DNA from: an uncultured delta proteobacterium
Lineage (GTDB): Bacteria; Desulfobacterota; Binatia; Binatales; Binataceae
Direction of reading: 5' to 3'
Assembly: GCA_963761255.1 (NCBI GenBank)
Contig: CAVXGH010000006.1
Span: 263,790 to 327,789, forward strand
Length of the DNA stretch: 64,000 bases
In this document: positions 2,849-35,685 of the stretch, piece after piece
Layout of the letters: each line of letters starts with the position of its first letter
Numbering within the stretch: the stretch's first letter is position 1
Notes under the pieces: model-generated
The model's input: only the letters and a program-made list of their open reading frames with translations
What the model was told of the DNA's origin: nothing
The model's database searches: none
Made by a program: the position numbers and the translations under genes

Positions 2849-4069
2849 TTGAAAAGCGCGACTCGATCAGTTAGCCATTCCCACGCGATGCCCTCGAAGA
2901 CCAACCGAAAGACCGCCGCTTCGCGCAAGAAGCCGGAGCGCGTGGATGTCACGCCTCTTTTCAAGGAGGAATCCAAGCCCGAGTGGAAGCCTGGTTCGAT
3001 CGAATCGCATCGAGTGCGGATGGATCGCATCAACCTGGAAATTCTGAAGCTGCTGTCCGAGCGCGCGTCGCATGCCAATGAGATCGGGCGCATCAAGCAC
3101 AACAGCGGCGCTCCCGTTTATCTGCCGGCGCGTGAGCGCGAGGTGATCGAGGGCATGGTCGCGGCGAATCCGGGGCCGCTCTCGGCGGAGCATATCGCGC
3201 GCATCTATGGCGAAATCATTTCCGCCTGTCGCGCGCTCGAACACGTGCCGCGAGTGGCGTATCTCGGGCCCGAGCACACCTACTCGCATGAGGCGGCGCG
3301 GGGCGCATTCGGCGGGAGCGTCGAGTTCGCGCCGCAGGCGTCGTTCGCGGCAGTTTTTCAAGAGGTACAAAACGGGCGCGCCGATTTCGGCGTGGTGCCG
3401 ATTGAGAACTCCACCGAGGGTCAGGTCAAGGAAGTGCTCGATCTGCTGATCGAGACACCGCTGGTGATTATCAGCGAGATTTTGCAGCCGGTCCGTCATG
3501 CGCTGATGTCACTCGACGGCGATCCTTCGAAGATCCGGCGCATCGTGTCGCATCAGCAGTCGCTCGGCCAATGCCGCGGCTACCTGAGCAGCAATTTCGC
3601 CGATCGCGAGCTGGAAGCGGTGGCCTCGAATGCGCTGGCGGCGCAGCGTGCGGCGCAGGACGCTTCGCTCGGCGCGATCGCCTCGCGCGCGGCGGCGGAA
3701 GCGTACAGACTGAAAGTCATCGCCGAAAATATCCAGGACCTCGCGCAGAACACCACGCGCTTCCTGGTGATGGGTACTCGCGGCGTGCCCAAGAGTGGAC
3801 GCGACAAGACGACCATTTTATTTGCGGTGCCCGATAAGGTCGGTGCGCTGAATACGGCACTGAACATGTTCGCGAAAAACAAGATCAACATTTCCAAGAT
3901 CGAGTCGCGTCCGTTACGTGGACGGTCATGGGAATATCTTTTTTTCGTGGACCTCGAAGGACACAGCGACGACCCTCGCGTGAAGCGCGCGCTCGCGGCA
4001 CTGAAAGACCGGACCCTTTTTTTGAGGGTCGCCGGATCGTATCCTGAGGCGAGGTCGGCCGCCGGCTAG
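2849..4069 (+). CDS. pheA: bifunctional chorismate mutase / prephenate dehydratase (P-protein) with C-terminal ACT domain; true start may be an internal Met
   Basis: CM domain (MDRINLEILKLLSERA…), PDT domain (VAYLGPEHTYSHEAA…), ACT domain (…TILFAVPDKVGALN…). Confidence 0.85.
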   Translation: MKSATRSVSHSHAMPSKTNRKTAASRKKPERVDVTPLFKEESKPEWKPGSIESHRVRMDRINLEILKLLSERASHANEIGRIKHNSGAPVYLPAREREVIEGMVAANPGPLSAEHIARIYGEIISACRALEHVPRVAYLGPEHTYSHEAARGAFGGSVEFAPQASFAAVFQEVQNGRADFGVVPIENSTEGQVKEVLDLLIETPLVIISEILQPVRHALMSLDGDPSKIRRIVSHQQSLGQCRGYLSSNFADRELEAVASNALAAQRAAQDASLGAIASRAAAEAYRLKVIAENIQDLAQNTTRFLVMGTRGVPKSGRDKTTILFAVPDKVGALNTALNMFAKNKINISKIESRPLRGRSWEYLFFVDLEGHSDDPRVKRALAALKDRTLFLRVAGSYPEARSAAG

Positions 4070-4087
4070 GGCGGCTGTTTCCGCAAA

Positions 4088-5182
4088 TTGGTTAAGCCAC
4101 AAGATTTGGTCCTGCCCGCGGTCGCGGCGATTCAGCCATACGAACCGGGAAAACCGACGGAAGAGCTGGAGCGCGAACTCGGCATCTCCGAGTCGGTGAA
4201 GCTCGCCTCCAATGAGAATCCAATCGGACCATCACCCATGGCGGTACAGGCGATTCGCGCGGCGCTCTCGGAGTTGAATCGCTATCCCGACGGCGGCAGC
4301 TTCACGCTGTGCAACCAGATCGCGGCGCGGCACAAGGTCAAACCCGAGCAGATTTTCATGGGATCGGGCTCCTGCGAGATAATCAACCTACTCGCGTTCC
4401 TGTTCCTGCGACCGGGCCTCAATGCGATTTCATCGGAGCATGCGTTTGCGATTTATCCGCTTGCGACCGCCTCGACCGGCGCGACCTACAAATCCGTGCC
4501 GATGCGCAATGGGTTCGAATTCGACCTCGATGCGATTGCCGGCGCGGTCGACGACAACACGCGCATCATCTATCTCGGCAATCCCAACAATCCGACCGGC
4601 ACGATTTACCGCCGTGCCGAATGGAAACGATTCCTGGCCAAAGTTCCACAGCGCGTCGTTATCGTCGCCGACGAGGCCTACTTCGAATTCGTGCGTGATG
4701 CCGAGTATCCGGACTCGATGCAGGATCATGACGGCACGCGGCTGATCATCACGCTGCGCACGTTTTCGAAAATCTTTGGGTTAGCGGGACTTCGCGTCGG
4801 ATATGGTGTGGCGCGGCCTGACATCGTCACGTTGCTGAACAAGGTCCGGCAGCCATTCAACATCACCACGCTCGCGCAGGTCGCGGTGGCGGCGGGAATG
4901 GATGATATCGATCACGTGAACGCGACCCTGCGAGTCAATCGCGAAGGGATGGAATATCTGGAGCGCGAATTTGCGCGCCTCAAGGTTGGATACATCCCGA
5001 GCCAGGCGAATTTTATTCTCGCCGAGGTCGGCGATGGGCGCGGTGTATTTGACAAGCTGCTGCATCTGGGAGTCATCGTGCGTCCGATGCATGGGTACGG
5101 CTACCCGCGTCACGTGCGCATCAGCGTTGGCTTGCCGGAGGAGAATCGCCGCCTGATCGAGGCGCTCGAAAAAGTTTTGTAA
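4088..5182 (+). CDS. hisC: histidinol-phosphate / aromatic aminotransferase
   Basis: …KLASNENPIGPSP… motif; PLP lysine region (FSKIFGLAGLRVGY). Confidence 0.85.
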   Translation: MVKPQDLVLPAVAAIQPYEPGKPTEELERELGISESVKLASNENPIGPSPMAVQAIRAALSELNRYPDGGSFTLCNQIAARHKVKPEQIFMGSGSCEIINLLAFLFLRPGLNAISSEHAFAIYPLATASTGATYKSVPMRNGFEFDLDAIAGAVDDNTRIIYLGNPNNPTGTIYRRAEWKRFLAKVPQRVVIVADEAYFEFVRDAEYPDSMQDHDGTRLIITLRTFSKIFGLAGLRVGYGVARPDIVTLLNKVRQPFNITTLAQVAVAAGMDDIDHVNATLRVNREGMEYLEREFARLKVGYIPSQANFILAEVGDGRGVFDKLLHLGVIVRPMHGYGYPRHVRISVGLPEENRRLIEALEKVL

Positions 5183-5241
5183 TCGGCAGCCCTTCGCGTC
5201 ATCCTTGCACAAGCTTCCTGCGAAGATAGCTGCTATAATCA

Positions 5242-6105
5242 ATGGCCACGCTTTTCCACCAAATCACCATATGCGGAGTCGGCCTCATCGGAGGCTCACT
5301 CGCCCTCATCGCGCGCGAACAGCATCTGATCGATCGCGCCGTCGGATTGGGACGCACGCTCACCAACCTCGAGGTCGCGCGCAATCGCGGGATGATCGAC
5401 CTCGCGACGCAGGACCCGGTCGAAGCTGCTAAGGGCGCTGACCTGGTGATGCTCGCGGTCCCGATTCGCACCATGCCCGCGGTTTTGGGCGCGATGATTC
5501 CTCACCTGCCGCCACATGCGGTCATCACCGACGTCGGCAGCGTCAAGGGATGGGTGGTGCGCGAGCTCGAGCCGCTGCTGAAGCCCGGCATGTCGCTGGT
5601 CGCGGTGCATCCGATCGCGGGCAAGGAGACCACCGGCGCCGAGGCGGCGGATCGCGAGCTGTTCGTGAATCGGCGCGTGATCGTGACGCCCTCGAAGACG
5701 AGCACGCCCGAGGCTATCGATAAGATCGAGCAGCTATGGCGCGCGACCGGCGCGAAGGTCGAAACGATGGACCCCGACTCGCACGATCGCATCCTCGCGC
5801 GCTCCAGTCATCTGCCGCAGCTCGTCGCGAGTGCGCTGGGTGCGTCGCTCAAGGATGAGCGCATCGCGGGCAAGCTCGCCGCCGAATACGGCGCGGGAGG
5901 TTTGCGCGATACGACCCGGCTGGCGGCATCGTCAACGGAAGTCTGGCGCGATATCTGTTTCACCAATCGCGACGCTATAATCGACGCGCTGAAGACTTTC
6001 GATGCGACCTTCGCGGAGCTTCGAAAGATCCTCGAAGCCGCCGATGAGCAGGCATTTACCGCGCTGTTTGATCGGGGCCGCGCGATGCGGGAGCGGCTGA
6101 AGTGA
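5242..6105 (+). CDS. tyrA: prephenate (or arogenate) dehydrogenase
   Basis: N-terminal Rossmann ICGVGLIGGSLAL; TyrA-family body; located between hisC and cmk. Confidence 0.8.
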   Translation: MATLFHQITICGVGLIGGSLALIAREQHLIDRAVGLGRTLTNLEVARNRGMIDLATQDPVEAAKGADLVMLAVPIRTMPAVLGAMIPHLPPHAVITDVGSVKGWVVRELEPLLKPGMSLVAVHPIAGKETTGAEAADRELFVNRRVIVTPSKTSTPEAIDKIEQLWRATGAKVETMDPDSHDRILARSSHLPQLVASALGASLKDERIAGKLAAEYGAGGLRDTTRLAASSTEVWRDICFTNRDAIIDALKTFDATFAELRKILEAADEQAFTALFDRGRAMRERLK

Positions 6106-6852: not shown

Positions 6853-8598
6853 ATGGAGAAAGTTTTGGCCGAACAACAAATGAGCGGAGGCGACAATGAT
6901 TTTGAGTCGTTGATGGAAGAGAGCCTCAAAGCTCCCCGTAACGGCGATGTCCTCGTCGGCAGGGTTCTGCTCGTCACACGCGATAGCGTCATCATCGACA
7001 TCAACTACAAGTGCGAGGGCCAGGTTCCACTCGCCGAGTTCCTTGATGCTGAGGGCAACGTCACCGTCAAGGAAGGCGACGAGGTCGATGTCTACTTCGA
7101 AGGCACCGAAACCGAGAACGGCACGGTTCTCCTCTCGCATGCGAAGGCGGAGAAATTCAAAGTCTGGCGCGAGCTCGAAAAAGCCTTCACCGCCGAACTG
7201 GCAGTCGAAGGCGTCGTCCTGGGCAAGGTCAAGGGCGGCCTGAAAGTAGATATCGGCGTTCCGGCATTCCTGCCCGGATCGCATGTTGATATTCGTCCCG
7301 CGCGCAATCTCGATCGTTACGTCGGTCAGCGCGGACGTTTTCAGATCCTGAAATTCAATCGTGCGCGCGGCAACGTCGTGGTCTCGCGCCGCAGCGTGCT
7401 CGAGCGCGAGCGCGCTACCCTGAAGGAAGAGACGCTGCGAGTCCTCGAAGAGGGCGTCATCCTCGAAGGCACGGTGAAGAACATCACCGACTATGGCGCA
7501 TTCATCGACCTCGGCGGCATCGATGGTCTCCTGCACATCACCGATATGTCATGGGGCCGCATCCAGCACCCGTCGGAAGTGCTGAAGGTGGGCGACAAAG
7601 TCAAAGTCGTCGTGCTCAAGTACGATCACGGCCGCGAGCGCGTCTCGCTCGGCATGAAGCAGATCATGCCCGATCCGTGGACCAAGGTGGCCGAGGCGTA
7701 TCCTCCCGGCACCCGCGTGACCGGCAAGGTCGTCAGCGTCACCGACTACGGCGCATTCGTCGAGCTGGAGAAGGGCGTCGAGGGGCTGATCCACGTTTCC
7801 GAGATGAGCTGGAGCAAGCGCGCCGTGCATCCGTCGAAGGTCGTCAATCCGAACGACAATGTCGAGGTGCAGGTGCTCGGCGTCGACGAGGGCAACCGGC
7901 GTATCTCGCTCGGACTGAAGCAGACTGAACCAAATCCGTGGCAGGCGCTCGCTGAGCAACATCCGGTGGGAACCCACGTTAAGGGCAAAGTCAAATCGAT
8001 CACCGACTTCGGCGTGTTCGTCGAAATCGAGCCCGGCATCGATGGTCTCGTGCACATTTCCGATCTCTCATGGACCAAGAAAATTCGGCATCCGTCGGAA
8101 ATCGCGAAGAAGGGCGACGAGATCGAAGCGGTGGTTCTCGGCATCGATGTCGAAAACGAACGCGTCAGCCTCGGCGTCAAGCAGTTGTCGCAGGATCCGT
8201 GGGATACCATCTCGGAGCGCTACCCGCTCAACACCCGCATCAACGGCAAGGTCAGTTCGGTTGCCGACTTCGGCGTGTTCGTCGAGATCGAGGAAGGCAT
8301 CGAGGGCCTCATCCATATCTCGCAGCTCTCCAATGAGCGCGTCGACAAGCCGTCGTCGCTGTACAAGGTTGACGATCCGGTCGAAGCGCTGGTGGTGCAG
8401 CTCGAGCCGAAGGAGCGCCGCATCGGCCTCTCGGTCAAGGCGCTCAAGCAGCATGAGGAGCGCGAAGAGATGCAGGCCTACGTCAAGAAAGAGCACGAGG
8501 CTGCGCGTTTCTCGATGGGGGATATCCTCAACGAGGAGCTGCGCCTCGACCGTGATGACGGGGAGCGCCGGCGCGCGGGCAAGGGACGCAACAACTAA
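6853..8598 (+). CDS. rpsA: 30S ribosomal protein S1 (six S1 domains); start could be Met at ~6880
   Basis: Repeated S1 domains (…GxVxxITDFGAFVELxxGIEGLIHISE…); cmk-rpsA-ihfB synteny. Confidence 0.95.
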   Translation: MEKVLAEQQMSGGDNDFESLMEESLKAPRNGDVLVGRVLLVTRDSVIIDINYKCEGQVPLAEFLDAEGNVTVKEGDEVDVYFEGTETENGTVLLSHAKAEKFKVWRELEKAFTAELAVEGVVLGKVKGGLKVDIGVPAFLPGSHVDIRPARNLDRYVGQRGRFQILKFNRARGNVVVSRRSVLERERATLKEETLRVLEEGVILEGTVKNITDYGAFIDLGGIDGLLHITDMSWGRIQHPSEVLKVGDKVKVVVLKYDHGRERVSLGMKQIMPDPWTKVAEAYPPGTRVTGKVVSVTDYGAFVELEKGVEGLIHVSEMSWSKRAVHPSKVVNPNDNVEVQVLGVDEGNRRISLGLKQTEPNPWQALAEQHPVGTHVKGKVKSITDFGVFVEIEPGIDGLVHISDLSWTKKIRHPSEIAKKGDEIEAVVLGIDVENERVSLGVKQLSQDPWDTISERYPLNTRINGKVSSVADFGVFVEIEEGIEGLIHISQLSNERVDKPSSLYKVDDPVEALVVQLEPKERRIGLSVKALKQHEEREEMQAYVKKEHEAARFSMGDILNEELRLDRDDGERRRAGKGRNN

Positions 8599-30374: not shown

Positions 30375-30390
30375 TCGCGTCACCACATCA

Positions 30391-31659
30391 ATGGACAAAA
30401 TGATCATCCACGGCGGCGCTCCTCTCAAAGGCGCCGTCAATGTCAGTGGCAGCAAGAACGCCACGCTGCCGATCCTGATGGCGTCGCTGCTGACCCGGGA
30501 ACCCGTCCGCATCCGCAACGTCCCGCACCTGCGCGACGTCGAGACCGCGCTCGCGCTGCTGCGCCGTCTCGGGGTGCAATGCGCGTGGACCGGCGACCAT
30601 AACCTGGTGCTGCAAGCCGAGAATGTCACCTCGCACGAGGCGCCTTACGACCTCGTCAAGACCATGCGCGCGTCGTTTTTCGTGCTCGGCCCGCTGCTGG
30701 CCCGGGCCAAACGCGCCAAGGTTTCCACTCCCGGTGGATGCGCGATCGGCGCGCGCCCCGTCAACCTGCACATCCTGGGCATTCGCGCGCTCGGCGCGCG
30801 CGTGCAGTTGCGCAATGGCTACGTCGAGGCGCATGCCGACCGGCTCGAAGGCGCGCGCATCTGGCTCGACAATCCTTCGGTGGGCGCGACCGAGAACATC
30901 ATGATGGCGGCGGTGCTGGCCGCCGGCAAAACCACCATCGAAAATGCGGCGCGCGAGCCCGAGGTGCAGGACCTCGCGAAATTCCTGGTTGCGATGGGCG
31001 CCAACGTGCGCGGCGCCGGCACCCACGTCATCGAGATCGAAGGCGTCACCAAGATGCATGGCGCCGATCACGAGGTGATTCCCGATCGCATCGAGGCGGG
31101 CTCGCTGATGGTCGCGGCGGCAATCACCGGCGGCGACGTGTCGATTCGAAACGTCCCGGTCGATCAGCTCGAAGCCGTCATCGTCAAGTTGCGCGAAACC
31201 GGCGTCTCGGTGGTCGCCGCCGATGGCGGCGTGCGCGTCAGCGGCGGCGGCGCGCTGCGTCCGGTCGAGCTGCGGACGCTGCCGCATCCCGGATTTCCGA
31301 CCGACCTGCAGGCGCAGATGATGGCGCTGCTGGCGCAAGCGAATGGCACCTCGGTCATCACCGAGACGATTTTCGAAAATCGCTTCATGCACGCGCTCGA
31401 GCTGATGCGGATGGGCGCCGACATCGTGATGAAAGGTTCGACCGCGGTGGTCCGCGGCGTGCCGCGATTGCAAGGCGCCCCGGTGATGGCGACTGACTTG
31501 CGCGCGAGCATGGGTCTGATCCTCGCGGGTTTGAGCGCCGAAAATTCGACCGAGATCGGCCGCGTCTATCATCTCGATCGCGGCTACGAAGCCCTCGACG
31601 CGAAGCTGTCGTCCTTGGGCGCGCACATCGAACGCGTGAAAGATTCCGTGGCATCGTAA
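30391..31659 (+). CDS. murA: UDP-N-acetylglucosamine 1-carboxyvinyltransferase
   Basis: MDKMIIHGGAPLKGAVNVSGSKNATLPIL…; full-length MurA. Confidence 0.9.
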   Translation: MDKMIIHGGAPLKGAVNVSGSKNATLPILMASLLTREPVRIRNVPHLRDVETALALLRRLGVQCAWTGDHNLVLQAENVTSHEAPYDLVKTMRASFFVLGPLLARAKRAKVSTPGGCAIGARPVNLHILGIRALGARVQLRNGYVEAHADRLEGARIWLDNPSVGATENIMMAAVLAAGKTTIENAAREPEVQDLAKFLVAMGANVRGAGTHVIEIEGVTKMHGADHEVIPDRIEAGSLMVAAAITGGDVSIRNVPVDQLEAVIVKLRETGVSVVAADGGVRVSGGGALRPVELRTLPHPGFPTDLQAQMMALLAQANGTSVITETIFENRFMHALELMRMGADIVMKGSTAVVRGVPRLQGAPVMATDLRASMGLILAGLSAENSTEIGRVYHLDRGYEALDAKLSSLGAHIERVKDSVAS

Positions 31660-31689
31660 CCTCCGCATGATAGACTGCGCTGACAGGCG

Positions 31690-31781
31690 GTCGACTCCTG
31701 ATGCAGTGCCGGTCTATTATAAAAATCTAATGCGATAGACTTCCGCTTCGTTTTATGTTATTATAATTTTCTGATAGACGG
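31690..31781 (+). promoter_or_regulatory. AT-rich (≈35-40% GC) promoter/operator region of the higBA-like module with three GATAGAC motifs incl. inverted pair GTCTAT…ATAGAC
   Basis: Sharp GC drop relative to the ~63% background; repeated/inverted GATAGAC half-sites just upstream of the toxin start. Confidence 0.3.
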
Positions 31782-32147
31782 ATGAAATGGACCTTCGACG
31801 ATTTTCTACACGCCTCCGGGGAGAGCGTGATCGAACAGTGGTTTGTCCAAATTGGCGACGAGCCGGAAGCATTCATTGAACGCCGCTTGCGCGATATGCG
31901 GCCGCTGCGGACTTGGCCGGAAAAGTGGGCCAGCAAGTATAAGGGTATCGACTTAATCGAGCTGCGAATTACTTTCAAAAAAGTGCAGTACCGGCCATTG
32001 GGTTGTTACGCTCCGGAATTTCACTTCTGGTTGCTCGCCGGAGCCATCGAAAAAGGGAAAATACCGAAGTCCGACATCGAGACCGCGACCGCCCGGAAGA
32101 AAATGGTCGAAGGCGGCCTGGGCAGGATCAGAGAACATGAATTTTAG
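31782..32147 (+). CDS. higB: HigB-like toxin (RelE/ParE superfamily, Gp49/DUF891-type)
   Basis: …KGIDLIELRITFKKVQYRPLGCYAPEFHFWLLAGAIEKGKIPKSDIETA… matches ELRI…YR…LL.G..K….DIE.A signature. Confidence 0.7.
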   Translation: MKWTFDDFLHASGESVIEQWFVQIGDEPEAFIERRLRDMRPLRTWPEKWASKYKGIDLIELRITFKKVQYRPLGCYAPEFHFWLLAGAIEKGKIPKSDIETATARKKMVEGGLGRIREHEF

Positions 32148-32562
32148 TCTTCGAAAGTTCCTTCGTAAGCGATACCGCGACGTTTTCGGCACTTCGATAA
32201 CGGGTACTACCGCGGCGCAGATCCGCGCGATGCGTGAGCAGCGCGGATGGACCCAGGAGGACTTCGCGCAAAAAATTGGGATGGGTCAAGCACGAATATC
32301 GCTTCTGGAAAATCCGAACTATGAGAACTTGAGTCTGAAGACTCTAAAGCGGGTTGCGAACGTTTTCGACGTAGCGCTGGTCGTCCGGTTTGCGCCCTTC
32401 AGCCGGCTCTTGGAGATGGTCGAGAGTGAAAACCCTGAAACACTTGCGGTCCCGAGTTTTGCAGATGAATTTGGTAGTGGCGAAGTCTCGATCGTCAAGT
32501 CGTCTCCGGAAATGACCGATTTCCATGAGCCGCTCCGGGAGTTTGATCGAGATCGGCGCTGA
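32137..32562 (+). CDS. higA: HigA-like antitoxin, XRE-family HTH regulator
   Basis: …AAQIRAMREQRGWTQEDFAQKIGMGQARISLLEN… HTH_XRE; 11-bp overlap with toxin gene. Confidence 0.7.
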   Translation: MNFSLRKFLRKRYRDVFGTSITGTTAAQIRAMREQRGWTQEDFAQKIGMGQARISLLENPNYENLSLKTLKRVANVFDVALVVRFAPFSRLLEMVESENPETLAVPSFADEFGSGEVSIVKSSPEMTDFHEPLREFDRDRR

Positions 32563-32595
32563 GCAGACCTGGAGAAGGTCCCGCGCGCCTTGGCT

Positions 32596-32655
32596 TCAAG
32601 AGCGGCGTGTCATGGCGACTGACCTGCGCGCGAGCATGGGCCTGATCCTCGCAGG
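32596..32655 (+). other. ~55-bp remnant / direct repeat of the murA 3' coding end (≈90% identical to 31483-31540)
   Basis: tcATGGCGACTGACcTGCGCGCGAGCATGGGcCTGATCCTCGCaGGgTTGAaG vs murA …VMATDLRASMGLILAGLS…; translated fragment VMATDLRASMGLILAGLK. Confidence 0.7.
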
Positions 32656-32759
32656 GTTGAAGTCTGAGATGACGTGTTCCCGCGGATACTGGCGTTTAGC
32701 GCGGGCTCTTTAAACTGCGCACCTCGATAGAGTATGTAAACTAGCAGACAACCGAGGCC

Positions 32760-34240
32760 GCTCTCTCTGTTATTCTGAGCGGAGGCTGCCGCAGCGAAGG
32801 ATCTACGCGCAGCGATGGGACCGTTCGGCAACGCCGAACGGTCGCCCTGAGCCTTGCGAAGGGCCTCCGCGCACTCTGCTTTATTTTTGTCATTCTGAAG
32901 CGAGCGGAACGCGACGCTGAAGAACCTCAGCCGAGGTGACTCAGCAAATGTCACTTCAGCATTCGCATGGTTCTTCTCTCCGCGATGGTGGAATGCGAAC
33001 GCGCTCCGTTCGCATGCTGCAGTGACATTCGGTGGTCAGGCACATCCGAGGTTCTTCGGCAGCGCAAGCTTGCCTCAGAATGACAAGCCACGGAGACGAT
33101 TTACTCGCGGATGGCATGGCATCACGATTCCCACGCCAAGTGCGAATCTCTTGCTCAGCTACCCCGCTAACCCGTTCCTCGCCCCGGGCTGCGAATAATG
33201 CTGCACGCTGTCACATTCGTGCCAATCGATTCGGTGCCTCCTGGCTTGTGATTCCGGTATTCGCCGTTTTGTCATTCTGAAGCGAGCGGAACGCGATGCT
33301 GAAGAACCTCGGCCGAGGTGACTCAGCAAATGTCACTTCAGCATTCGCATGGTTCCTCTCTCCGCGATGGTGGAATGCGAACGCGCTCCGTTCGCATGCT
33401 GCAGTGACATTCGGTGGTCAGGCACATCCGAGGTTCTTCGGCAGCGCAAGCTTGCCTCAGAATGACAAGCCACGGAGACGATTTACTCGCGGATGGCATG
33501 GCATCACGATTCCCACGCCAAGTGCGAATCTCTTGCTCAGCTACCCCGCTAACCCATTCCTCGCCCCGGGCTGCGAATAATGCTGCACGCTGTCACATTC
33601 GTGCCAATCGATTCGGTGCCTCCTGGCTTGTCATTCCGGTATCCGCCGTTTTGTCATTCTGAACCGAGCGGAACGCGATGCTGAAGAACCTCGGCCGAGG
33701 TGACTCAGCAAATGTCACTTCAGCATTCGCATGGTTCTTCTCTCCGCGATGGTGGAATGCGAACGCGCTCCGTTCGCATGCTGAAGTGACATTCGGTGGT
33801 CAGGCACATCCGAGGTTCTTCGGCAGCGCAAGCTTGCCTCAGAATGACAAGCCACGGAGACGATTTACTCGCGGATGGCATGGCATCACGATTCCCACGC
33901 CAAGTGCGAATCTCTTGCTCAGCTACCCCGCTAACCCATTCCTCGCCCCGGGCTGCGAATAATGCTGCACGCTGTCACATTCGTGCCAATCGATTCGGTG
34001 CCTCCTGGCTTGTCATTCCGGTATTCGCCGTTTTGTCATTCTGAAGCGAGCGGAACGCGATGCTGAAGAACCTCGGCCGAGGTGACTCAGCAAATGTCAC
34101 TTCAGCATTCGCATGGTTCTTCTCTCCGCGATGGTGGAATGCGAACGCGCTCTCATTCGCATGCTGAAGTGACATTCGGTGGTCAGGCACATCCGAGGTT
34201 CTTCGGCAGCGCAAGCTTGCCTCAGAATGACAAGCTTGCG
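32760..34240. repeat. tandem array of a 382-bp unit (one degenerate leading copy + 3 full + 1 truncated copy); each unit contains a ~235-bp imperfect palindrome with ~95-bp arms
   Basis: Exact 382-bp periodicity (unit starts 32887, 33269, 33651, 34033), copies >97% identical; arms TTGTCATTCTGAAGCGAGC…/…GCTTGCCTCAGAATGACAA and internal hairpins (GCGAACGCGCTCCGTTCGC). Confidence 0.9.
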
Positions 34241-34362
34241 GGAGGCTTGGGGTCGCCCGCTTCAGCCATTCGTCGATGGCGCCGGTTACGGAATTGGCGC
34301 CACTATTGTAGAGGCGACCGCGCGTGGACTGCCTCGCCTCGCTCGCCTACACTCCGCACCAC

Positions 34363-35685
34363 ATGAAGCCCCGCATCCTCAAGTCCGGAACTTCTGAGTT
34401 CAAGCGCTTCCTCGACGCCATCATCGCGCGGCGCGGTGGCGATGACGATGCGGCGCGCGTCGATGCTGCCGTGAGCGCAATCATCGCGGATGTGCGCAAG
34501 CGCGGCGATGCCGCGCTGATCGAATACACCGAGAAATTCGATCGCGTGAAGCTGACGCCGAAGACCTTGCGGGTCTCATCGAAGGAGCTTCGCGACGCGC
34601 TAGCACAGCTGCCTAAAAAGGATCGCGTCGCGCTCGAACTGGCGGCGCGCCGCATCGCCGCGTTTCATAAGAAGACTATCGAGAAGCCATTCTCCTATAC
34701 CGACAGCCTCGGGATGCGGCTCGGCCAGATGGTGCGCCCGCTCGATCGCGCGGGGATTTATGTGCCGGGCGGAATGGGCGCGTATCCGTCCTCGGTGCTG
34801 ATGAATGCGATTCCCGCGCGCGTCGCCGGAGTTCGCGAAATCGTCATGGTCTCGCCGCCCTCGGCCGAGAGCGACCGCCCCGAGGTGATGGCTGCGGCTG
34901 CGATTGCCGGCGTCGATGAATTCTATCGCGTCGGCGGTGCGCATGGGGTTGCCGCGCTCGCCTACGGAACCTCGAGCATCGCGGCCGTCGACAAGATCGT
35001 CGGGCCCGGAAATGCGTACGTCCAGGCCGCCAAGCGCATGGTCTATGGTGTAGTGGATATCGACAAAATGGCGGGTCCGAGCGAGGTCCTCGTCATTGCC
35101 GATGACAGCGCGCATGCCGCCTGGGTCGCCGCCGACCTCATCGCGCAAGCCGAGCATGGCTCCGGCGACGAATCCGCAGTGATGCTAACTCCTTCGCAAA
35201 AGCTCGCCGATGCGGTGTCGGATGCGCTCGTGGCGGCGCTGGTGGATTTGCCACGCGCCCGCGCCGTCGAAGCCGTCCTCGACAAGCGAGGCGCCCTGGT
35301 GGTCGTGCGGGACCTGGAAGAAGCTTTCGAGCTCGCAAATATCATCGGACCTGAACATCTGGAGCTCGAAATCCGCAATCCTTCGCGATGGCTCCCCAAA
35401 GTTAAAGCAGCAGGTGCGATTTTCCTCGGTCCGATGAGTCCGGCTCCGTTAGGCGATTATCTCGCTGGCCCAAACCATGTTCTACCCACCGGCGGCTCGG
35501 CTCGTTTTGCGTCTCCTCTCGGCGCTTACGATTTTCTCAAGCGCACCAGTATAATCGAGGCGTCGCCCAAGGCGCTGCGCAAGCTCGGTCCGACGGTCGC
35601 GCGGCTGGCGCGGATGGAAGGATTCGAGGGTCATGCGCGCGCGATGGAGACTCGTTACCAACCGAACGGGCGGCGGGGAAAATAA
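34363..35685 (+). CDS. hisD: histidinol dehydrogenase
   Basis: Full-length HisD (…IVGPGNAYVQAAKR…, …AEHGSGDES…). Confidence 0.9.
   Translation: MKPRILKSGTSEFKRFLDAIIARRGGDDDAARVDAAVSAIIADVRKRGDAALIEYTEKFDRVKLTPKTLRVSSKELRDALAQLPKKDRVALELAARRIAAFHKKTIEKPFSYTDSLGMRLGQMVRPLDRAGIYVPGGMGAYPSSVLMNAIPARVAGVREIVMVSPPSAESDRPEVMAAAAIAGVDEFYRVGGAHGVAALAYGTSSIAAVDKIVGPGNAYVQAAKRMVYGVVDIDKMAGPSEVLVIADDSAHAAWVAADLIAQAEHGSGDESAVMLTPSQKLADAVSDALVAALVDLPRARAVEAVLDKRGALVVVRDLEEAFELANIIGPEHLELEIRNPSRWLPKVKAAGAIFLGPMSPAPLGDYLAGPNHVLPTGGSARFASPLGAYDFLKRTSIIEASPKALRKLGPTVARLARMEGFEGHARAMETRYQPNGRRGK

Follow-up and report, generated by a model that had tools for sequence, protein, structure and literature searches.

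How did a small toxin–antitoxin (TA) pair come to lie between two housekeeping genes, and what does a scrap of the upstream gene found behind it say about the route that it took? This question is raised by a stretch of 64,000 nucleotides (nt) from an uncultured delta proteobacterium of the Binataceae (assembly GCA_963761255.1, contig CAVXGH010000006.1, positions 263,790 to 327,789 of the forward strand), hereafter called the window, in which murA is followed by a Gp49/HigB-like toxin gene, an overlapping antitoxin gene encoding a helix-turn-helix (HTH) protein of the XRE type and a short murA-like piece, hisD being found further downstream. An initial annotation, made from the sequence alone, had viewed this arrangement as the footprint of site-specific integration into the 3' end of murA, with the gene end reconstituted and the TA pair left as the remnant of a larger element. 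Here, we report that the pair sits in a 2.7-kb composite insertion, a patchwork which splits the ancestral murA–hisD junction, and that it descends in shortened form from an operon of three genes. The account that we favor, with a probability of about 0.5, is that this truncated HigBA pair was gained by recombination with murA-linked foreign DNA from the Binataceae and was eroded afterwards. The features on which the argument rests are the following (coordinates in the window; aa, amino acids; E, expectation value):

30385..31659, plus strand, murA (UDP-N-acetylglucosamine 1-carboxyvinyltransferase), full length, 424 codons; Pfam EPSP_synthase, E 8e-107
31483..31534, plus strand, repeat copy 1, inside the functional murA; codons 367-383 of 424, peptide VMATDLRASMGLILAGL
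31782..32147, plus strand, toxin, Gp49/HigB-like (RelE/ParE superfamily), 121 aa; from Pfam, relatives, AlphaFold/Foldseek and the ratio of non-synonymous to synonymous substitution rates (dN/dS)
32137..32562, plus strand, antitoxin, XRE-type HTH protein, 141 aa, without the C-terminal tail of ~30 residues; from HTH_3 and dN/dS
32609..32660, plus strand, repeat copy 2, isolated murA fragment (psi-murA core), 47/52 identity; a weak extension may span ~32583-32674
34363..35685, plus strand, hisD (histidinol dehydrogenase); Pfam Histidinol_dh, E 5e-160, and synteny

A recurrent insertion site between murA and hisD

Genes in this region run rpmE-prfA-prmC-murA, followed by a spacer of 2,703 nt and then by hisD and hisB. 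Close relatives were gathered via homologous MurA proteins and the contigs encoding these; a scan of genome contigs with MurA was swamped by universally conserved motifs, its best match having 62% identity. The murA product of the window shares 79-90% identity with Binataceae MurA proteins. In all six relatives with an empty site, listed below with their MurA identity to the window, the hisD start overlaps the murA stop or sits at most 19 nt from it:

L088, 88%
L089, 86%
L166, 84%
L171, 81%
L172, 79%
L008 (a Binatia genome), 62%

Because both genes abut or overlap in these six Binatia relatives, the 2,703 nt found between the murA stop (31659) and hisD represent an insertion. The synteny check suggested in the initial annotation hence bears out its view that DNA was inserted behind murA, the empty site being present in relatives.

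The same junction has been occupied in other ways. The closest MurA relative, L087 (90%), carries there an insert of 1.7 kb (3321-5049) with unlike cargo: an open reading frame (ORF) of 227 aa without Pfam match, a pair of ORFs of 113 and 88 aa, and a 45-nt copy of hisD codons ~7-21 with 84% identity to its source (4231-4275 versus 5068-5112). The contig L090 (Ga0073928_10376246, 1,045 nt) holds a murA 3' end and, behind it, the promoter and TA pair seen in the window, with a toxin 87% identical; the ~50 nt following the murA stop are unrelated between the two, and the synonymous sites of their TA genes are saturated. Three different inserts are thus found at this junction across the Binataceae (window, L087 and L090). 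From the different cargo in L087 and the TA pair in L090, it follows that the junction takes up cargo repeatedly: it is a recurrent insertion hot spot between two normally coupled genes. As a side observation, the 113-aa and 88-aa ORF pair of L087 resembles another small TA-like module (weak MazE-like match, E 0.08).

A divergent HigBA-like pair

The two TA genes are intact ORFs, with the toxin gene first and an overlap of 11 nt, taken to couple their translation. Toxin homologues (n = 35) come mostly from Candidatus Binataceae, and 28 of them match the Pfam family Gp49 (PF05973) with E <= 0.01, the best reaching 2.3e-8; a relative 73% identical to the window toxin is named 'RelE/ParE family toxin' by NCBI. 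The AlphaFold model, built on the homologue alignment (predicted local distance difference test, pLDDT, 94.6; predicted template modeling score, pTM, 0.88), has a RelE-like fold in which N-terminal helices are combined with a long helix at the C-terminus (96-110), the latter being typical of Gp49-like toxins (PMC9098466). In Foldseek searches of the PDB with this model, HigB toxins account for nine of the ten top matches (probability 0.95-1.0), with template modeling (TM) scores of 0.62-0.73 against the HigBs of S. pneumoniae (6af4) and M. tuberculosis (7awk) and of 0.46-0.55 against V. cholerae HigB2 (8a0x, 5jaa). The Gp49/HigB identity first proposed for this gene is therefore supported at the family level, by PF05973 and by the HigB fold of the model, the window protein taken alone being sub-threshold.

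Within the family, the toxin residues E60, R62 and R71 are invariant or near-invariant and K93 is mostly conserved. In a weak profile alignment (E 0.6), these four positions align with E66, R68, R77 and K99 of M. tuberculosis HigB1 (HigB-TAC), the proposed catalytic-pocket residues of that toxin (PMC9098466). By the same weak alignment and in contrast to HigB-TAC, the position of K95 is occupied by Ile89 in the window toxin, with a conserved lysine two residues on, and the catalytic geometry read from these sequences is uncertain. By analogy, the protein is most likely a ribosome-dependent mRNA endonuclease.

Regarding the antitoxin, the initial assignment to an overlapping XRE-type gene stands: Pfam HTH_3 is matched with E 4e-13 and four further HTH families score above their own thresholds. 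Matches to the curated antitoxin families of NCBIfam (Y4mF/HipB, MqsA and others) all lie far below the cut-offs, and the nearest PDB sequences are HipB antitoxins and the C-proteins of restriction-modification systems. An HTH gene adjoins the toxin gene in essentially all of the more than 80 loci inspected. Compared with relatives, dN/dS is 0.02-0.05 for the toxin and 0.08-0.13 for the antitoxin, and the pair is hence under strong purifying selection (0.02-0.13 overall).

The 121-aa and 141-aa proteins most likely form a type II TA system of the HigBA kind, a divergent Gp49-type HigBA module. Like the Gp49-like HigBA systems of S. pneumoniae (6af4), V. cholerae (HigBA2; 5jaa, 8a0x) and M. tuberculosis (HigB1/HigB-TAC; 7awk, 7nbu), the toxin gene comes first and is overlapped by the HTH gene, and the modeled toxin shares with these HigBs the RelE-like fold and its long C-terminal helix. 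Unlike the solved HigBs, to which it is only 12-22% identical, the window toxin falls below the Pfam gathering score, and the antitoxin, unlike the solved HigAs, is nearer in sequence to the HTH domains of HipB and C-proteins. As in other systems of this kind, the XRE-HTH protein would neutralize the toxin and would probably repress the AT-rich promoter in front of the pair, making it a candidate for autoregulation.

A truncated three-gene operon

When metagenomes were scanned with the toxin alignment, 76 loci were obtained. Among the 60 with enough downstream DNA, 39 have a third gene of ~220 aa behind the TA pair, including all close relatives with room for it (L003, 6856-7524; L001, 6862-7536; L167, 940-1608; and many other loci, all outside the window). 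When loci from at least five genomic contexts are compared, homology sets in ~70 nt upstream of the toxin ATG and ends where the third gene stops, and the DNA common to them contains neither shared ends nor a recombinase gene. The parent unit is a bare operon occurring at many places in Binataceae genomes. In the window, homology of the antitoxin ends at about residue 138 (nt ~32550), where relatives run ~30 residues further, into the third gene, and this gene is absent from the whole window. The window pair thus derives by truncation from an operon that encodes, besides a toxin and a tailed antitoxin, a protein of ~220 aa whose predicted fold resembles that of the TATA-box-binding protein (TBP). 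As to the remnant that had been proposed, what is left is indeed a cut-down unit, severed inside the antitoxin tail, but the unit is a three-gene operon and an integrase-bearing parent element is unsupported.

The third protein has no match in Pfam (SecB included), PHROG, PADLOC or the sequences of the PDB, and its identification as SecB, a recombinase or a known defense protein was rejected on this ground. Its AlphaFold model has a pLDDT of 90.3 and finds as best Foldseek match the two-repeat TBP fold (probability 1.0, TM 0.40-0.47). The family comprises ~1,800 clusters at 50% identity and has no Pfam model. A full-text literature search returned no paper joining 'TBP-like' with toxin-antitoxin, and a search for TA modules of Binatia returned incidental mentions only.

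A three-gene organization recalls the toxin-antitoxin-chaperone (TAC) system, in which HigB1, HigA1 and a SecB-like chaperone are combined and in which an antitoxin deprived of its C-terminal chaperone addiction (ChAD) extension becomes chaperone-independent (PMC5105189). Like TAC, the operon of close relatives has three genes and an antitoxin with a C-terminal extension of ~30 residues, which immediately precedes the third gene; the window copy has lost extension and third gene together and could, by analogy, mirror the TAC logic by which loss of the tail leads to independence from the partner. Unlike TAC, the third protein of the relatives is not SecB-like and has a TBP-like fold according to its model, the window has no third gene, and some relatives (L005) pair a short antitoxin with the third gene. 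It is a tentative and rather doubtful proposal that the complete module represents an undescribed tripartite system, with the third protein in the regulatory place of the SecB-like chaperone and the window copy as its natural derivative devoid of tail and third gene, and that the bare operon, without an element-encoded recombinase, inserts next to housekeeping genes (murA, nuoD) at their 3' ends and leaves these genes partially copied.

In distant relatives, other settings were seen. In L125, L124 and L109 (~4780-4851 in L124/L109), the TA pair adjoins tRNA genes (Gly, Val, Thr), and the pair of L125 is enclosed by direct repeats of 81 nt (3720-3800 and 5576-5654) beside a transposase like those of insertion sequences (IS). 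From these tRNA and IS-like settings, it follows that the same toxin family is carried in different mobile contexts.

An internal fragment of murA behind the antitoxin gene

The two copies form a direct repeat of 52 nt (GTCATGGCGACTGACCTGCGCGCGAGCATGGGCCTGATCCTCGCAGGGTTGA) with 47/52 (90%) identity and lie 1,126 nt apart. Its significance is high, both by blastn (E 6e-14) and against a profile of 120 MurA C-termini (E 1.9e-10). A duplication of ~55 bp had been noted in the initial annotation and is real; it does not, however, concern the last murA codons, the repeat corresponding to the internal codons 367-383 and ending 125 nt before the murA stop. The second copy begins ~45 nt past the stop of the antitoxin gene. 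Beyond its core (at most ~32583-32674), the flanks have no significant homology to murA (DNA shuffles, p = 0.45 and 0.28; profile E >= 0.2). A longer murA pseudogene, as drawn by tblastn between 32543-32734 and MurA residues 340-418, was rejected by the same shuffles and by a hidden Markov model search with the core removed (E >= 0.2).

Along the functional murA, DNA identity to four relatives does not change at the repeat, being the same inside it and on either side (81-87% after versus 81-86%), and this comparison gives no sign that the 3' end was imported, the 116 nt of murA after the repeat affording little power to detect such an import. A segment bounded by a reconstituted murA 3' end is hence not what is found: the repeat is internal, murA identity is uniform and a displaced end is missing.

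All five differences between the two copies are synonymous (S = 13.3, N = 37.7), a pattern with P = 0.0012 for two freely drifting copies and P = 0.012 for a neutral copy of a constrained murA. Copy 2 is closest to the murA of the window itself (47/52, versus 42-44/52 for the other murA sequences compared), and outgroup comparison places at least two of the changes on its own lineage. Because all five differences are synonymous, the scrap is best explained by a foreign origin: the pattern suggests that copy 2 diverged within the working murA of another lineage and arrived with foreign DNA, a decaying local duplicate being less likely.

A sister case is provided by L003, where the operon, with all three genes, has an entire nuoD on one side and, on the other, a frameshifted duplicate of ~290 nt from the 3' end of nuoD. 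The nuoD repeat (5073-5333 versus 7768-8032) includes a block of 33 nt with 100% identity, ending 3 nt before the last codon, and the arrangement has the same topology as murA, TA pair and murA scrap in the window. Flanking direct repeats are nevertheless rare: among toxin loci of at least 3 kb compared with themselves, they occur in three distinct contexts (L003/L097, L125 and L143/L144), and they were rejected as a general property of the module.

Origin of the insert

In the account that we favor, the TA module would have been acquired by recombination, the donor being a different Binataceae lineage whose copy of the operon was linked to murA. A circularized fragment would probably have integrated in Campbell fashion, by a single crossover in the 3' region of murA. 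Later deletions, together with insertions of tandem repeats (a 382-bp array included) and of elements like repetitive extragenic palindromes (REP) or miniature inverted-repeat transposable elements (MITE), would then have eroded the duplicated part of murA and left a foreign scrap of 52 nt fused near the end of the truncated antitoxin gene.

Several observations weigh against this account. A Campbell integration predicts a displaced murA 3' end after the 52-nt core, abutting hisD, and searches for this end gave nothing significant, a marginal match (p = 0.02) in the pre-hisD segment of L087 being the only hint. Because this displaced end is undetected, the model needs extra steps of deletion and insertion. 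No donor lineage was identified, the TA genes of L090 being saturated at synonymous sites relative to the window. As for the HigBA identity, the window toxin matches PF05973 with E 1.1e-3 and 19.5 bits, below the gathering score of 23.9, and NCBIfam and PADLOC searches with it gave no toxin match. Moreover, the upstream palindrome that relatives conserve has degenerated in the window copy, whose regulation may therefore be different.

It is unlikely that a larger, integrase-bearing element inserted site-specifically in the 3' part of murA with a replacement end, the repeats being attL and attR and the TA pair leftover cargo (a remnant akin to cis-mobilizable elements, CIME, perhaps formed by tandem accretion). 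Integrative elements that insert in the 3' end of a protein gene and supply a replacement end are well known, among them e14 in icd and the accretion of CIME and integrative and conjugative elements (ICE) at fda. As with these, a full target gene is followed by cargo and by a partial copy of the target, relatives have empty sites, and the site has been reused, with three different inserts at one junction. The direct repeat is genuine and lies within a highly conserved segment of murA, the nuoD 3'-end duplication of L003 (with its 33-nt block of 100% identity) stands beside the same module, and the exclusively synonymous differences would also suit an attP that preserves the coding of murA. Yet the copy is an internal piece of 52 nt whose counterpart ends 125 nt short of the murA stop, the part of murA past the repeat is as near to relatives as the rest of the gene, and neither a displaced original 3' end after copy 2 nor a detectable foreign one is found. 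An integrase is missing as well, the insert (31660-34362) having no ORF above 141 aa besides the TA pair, and there is no tRNA in the window. Across contexts, homology is confined to the operon, from about -70 to the third-gene stop, with no common ends or recombinase, and the rarity of flanking repeats points the same way. Of the footprint read in the initial annotation, the direct repeat and the empty sites therefore remain, whereas the gene terminus, the replacement and displaced ends and the integrase do not.

Somewhat less probable still is a purely local rearrangement, by which a TA pair already present between murA and hisD would have been joined, through tandem duplication or a templated filler patch, by a copy of the window's own murA, with a later deletion. 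Such an origin would agree with the location of the murA piece ~45 nt downstream of the truncated antitoxin gene, with the sharp borders on both sides, which look like junctions, and with the closeness of copy 2 to the resident murA (47/52). Under neutral drift of a copy, however, five differences that are all synonymous are unexpected (P = 0.012), and at least two changes belong to the copy's own lineage. We consider it very improbable that the TA pair has resided in the murA-hisD spacer since ancient times, by vertical inheritance, and was lost from relatives. Although L090, about as distant as L089 and L166 when judged by the murA 3' end, has the TA pair behind murA, the six empty-site relatives, including the 62% Binatia genome, would require repeated and perfectly precise deletions; L087 and L088, which are closer than L090, are without the pair, and the ~50 nt following the murA stop are unrelated between L090 and the window. 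Recombination with murA-linked foreign DNA, followed by erosion, is the account that we retain.

The leader of the TA operon

Upstream of the toxin gene, two segments can be distinguished:

31660..31711, no strand assigned, stretch from the murA stop to the start of module homology, 52 nt; contains CTCCGCA (31661-31667) and the first GATAGAC (31669-31675)
31712..31781, plus strand, predicted AT-rich promoter/operator leader of the TA operon; from upstream alignment (n = 9), promoter scan, GC content and motif counts

The AT-rich start of the segment, reported in the initial annotation, is confirmed by a GC content of 0.37-0.43 at 31700-31849, versus 0.60-0.78 inside murA. The leader contains a degenerate palindrome, ATTATAAAAATCTAAT, at 31716-31731 and a promoter-like site at 31736-31764, with a -35-like TAGACT (31736-31741) and a TG-extended -10 TATTAT (31759-31764). 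Across nine aligned upstream regions, three features are conserved: the palindrome ATTAGAAAATTCTAAT, which in relatives lies ~50-65 nt upstream of the toxin ATG, the TATTAT -10 and TTTTCTGATA just before the ATG.

GATAGAC occurs three times on the plus strand within 31669-31779 (31669-31675, 31734-31740 and 31773-31779), and any 7-mer reaches at least three occurrences in shuffles of the 126-nt leader with P = 0.003. These copies, which had been taken for an autoregulatory operator, are thus non-random but unconserved: their 'GAC' part is not kept in the nine upstream regions, on which basis they were rejected as operator. Because the palindrome is conserved where this 'GAC' is not, it is the better candidate and likely the operator, as far as can be judged from the alignment. 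The GATAGAC copies are a lineage-specific oddity and may partly reflect a lineage-specific rearrangement of the operator. A 6-nt inverted repeat, GTCTAT (31712-31717) and ATAGAC (31735-31740), 17 nt apart, was also seen to bracket the degenerate palindrome.

The remainder of the insert

Between the murA scrap and hisD, the insert is made up of the following parts:

32661..32884, no strand assigned, non-coding filler with a REP/MITE-like hairpin element (~32765-32870), as read from the sequence
32885..34235, no strand assigned, 382-bp tandem array, 3.5 copies with 98% identity, in the same murA-hisD insert as the TA pair
34311..34362, no strand assigned, pre-hisD segment of ~52 nt, common to the window and L087 (~4995-5049) and absent from empty-site relatives

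The filler has no homologue in any fetched locus. REP-like hairpins of the form 'TTATTCTG(A/C)GCGGAG...' were observed in inserts behind murA, both in the window (32765-32870) and in L087 (~3335-3365). The array is built from four palindromic MITE-like units of ~205 nt, with the ends TTGTCATTCTGAAGC...GAAGAACCTCGG and CCGAGGTTCTTCGG...CCTCAGAATGACAAG, and from three identical spacers of ~177 nt. Neither array nor filler recurs in the rest of the window or in any of the fetched loci, and the array has no Rfam match; nothing ties the TA module to the array, into which the initial annotation had let the element possibly continue. No meaningful Rfam match was obtained in 31000-35000, and a terminator scan showed no terminator-like sites.

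The pre-hisD segment is probably the conserved right end of the insertion and possibly a new leader or promoter of hisD. Its interpretation as a displaced murA end was rejected (window, p 0.79; L087, p 0.02 for murA codons ~400-412; profile not significant). Finally, CTCCGCA occurs both just past the murA stop (31661-31667) and 8 nt before the hisD start (34349-34355). This 7-nt repeat was seen by eye and is too short for statistics; the two copies could each be one half of the spacer that ancestrally separated murA and hisD, or could represent a short duplication of the target of the whole 2.7-kb insert.

Concluding remarks

Taken as a whole, the locus is a routine case of TA genes on a genomic islet of an ordinary kind, located at a recombination hot spot, and the main value of its analysis is to correct the over-reading of a short repeat as the footprint of an att site. 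It also points to a widespread and unannotated three-gene operon combining a HigB toxin, an HTH protein and a protein with a predicted TBP fold. Its two-gene version in the window, a naturally occurring "deletion mutant", can serve to address the functions of the antitoxin tail and of the third protein. Moreover, with three inserts and scraps of both flanking genes, the murA-hisD junction provides a compact natural system, well suited to study how small cargo operons devoid of recombinases enter between translationally coupled essential genes.

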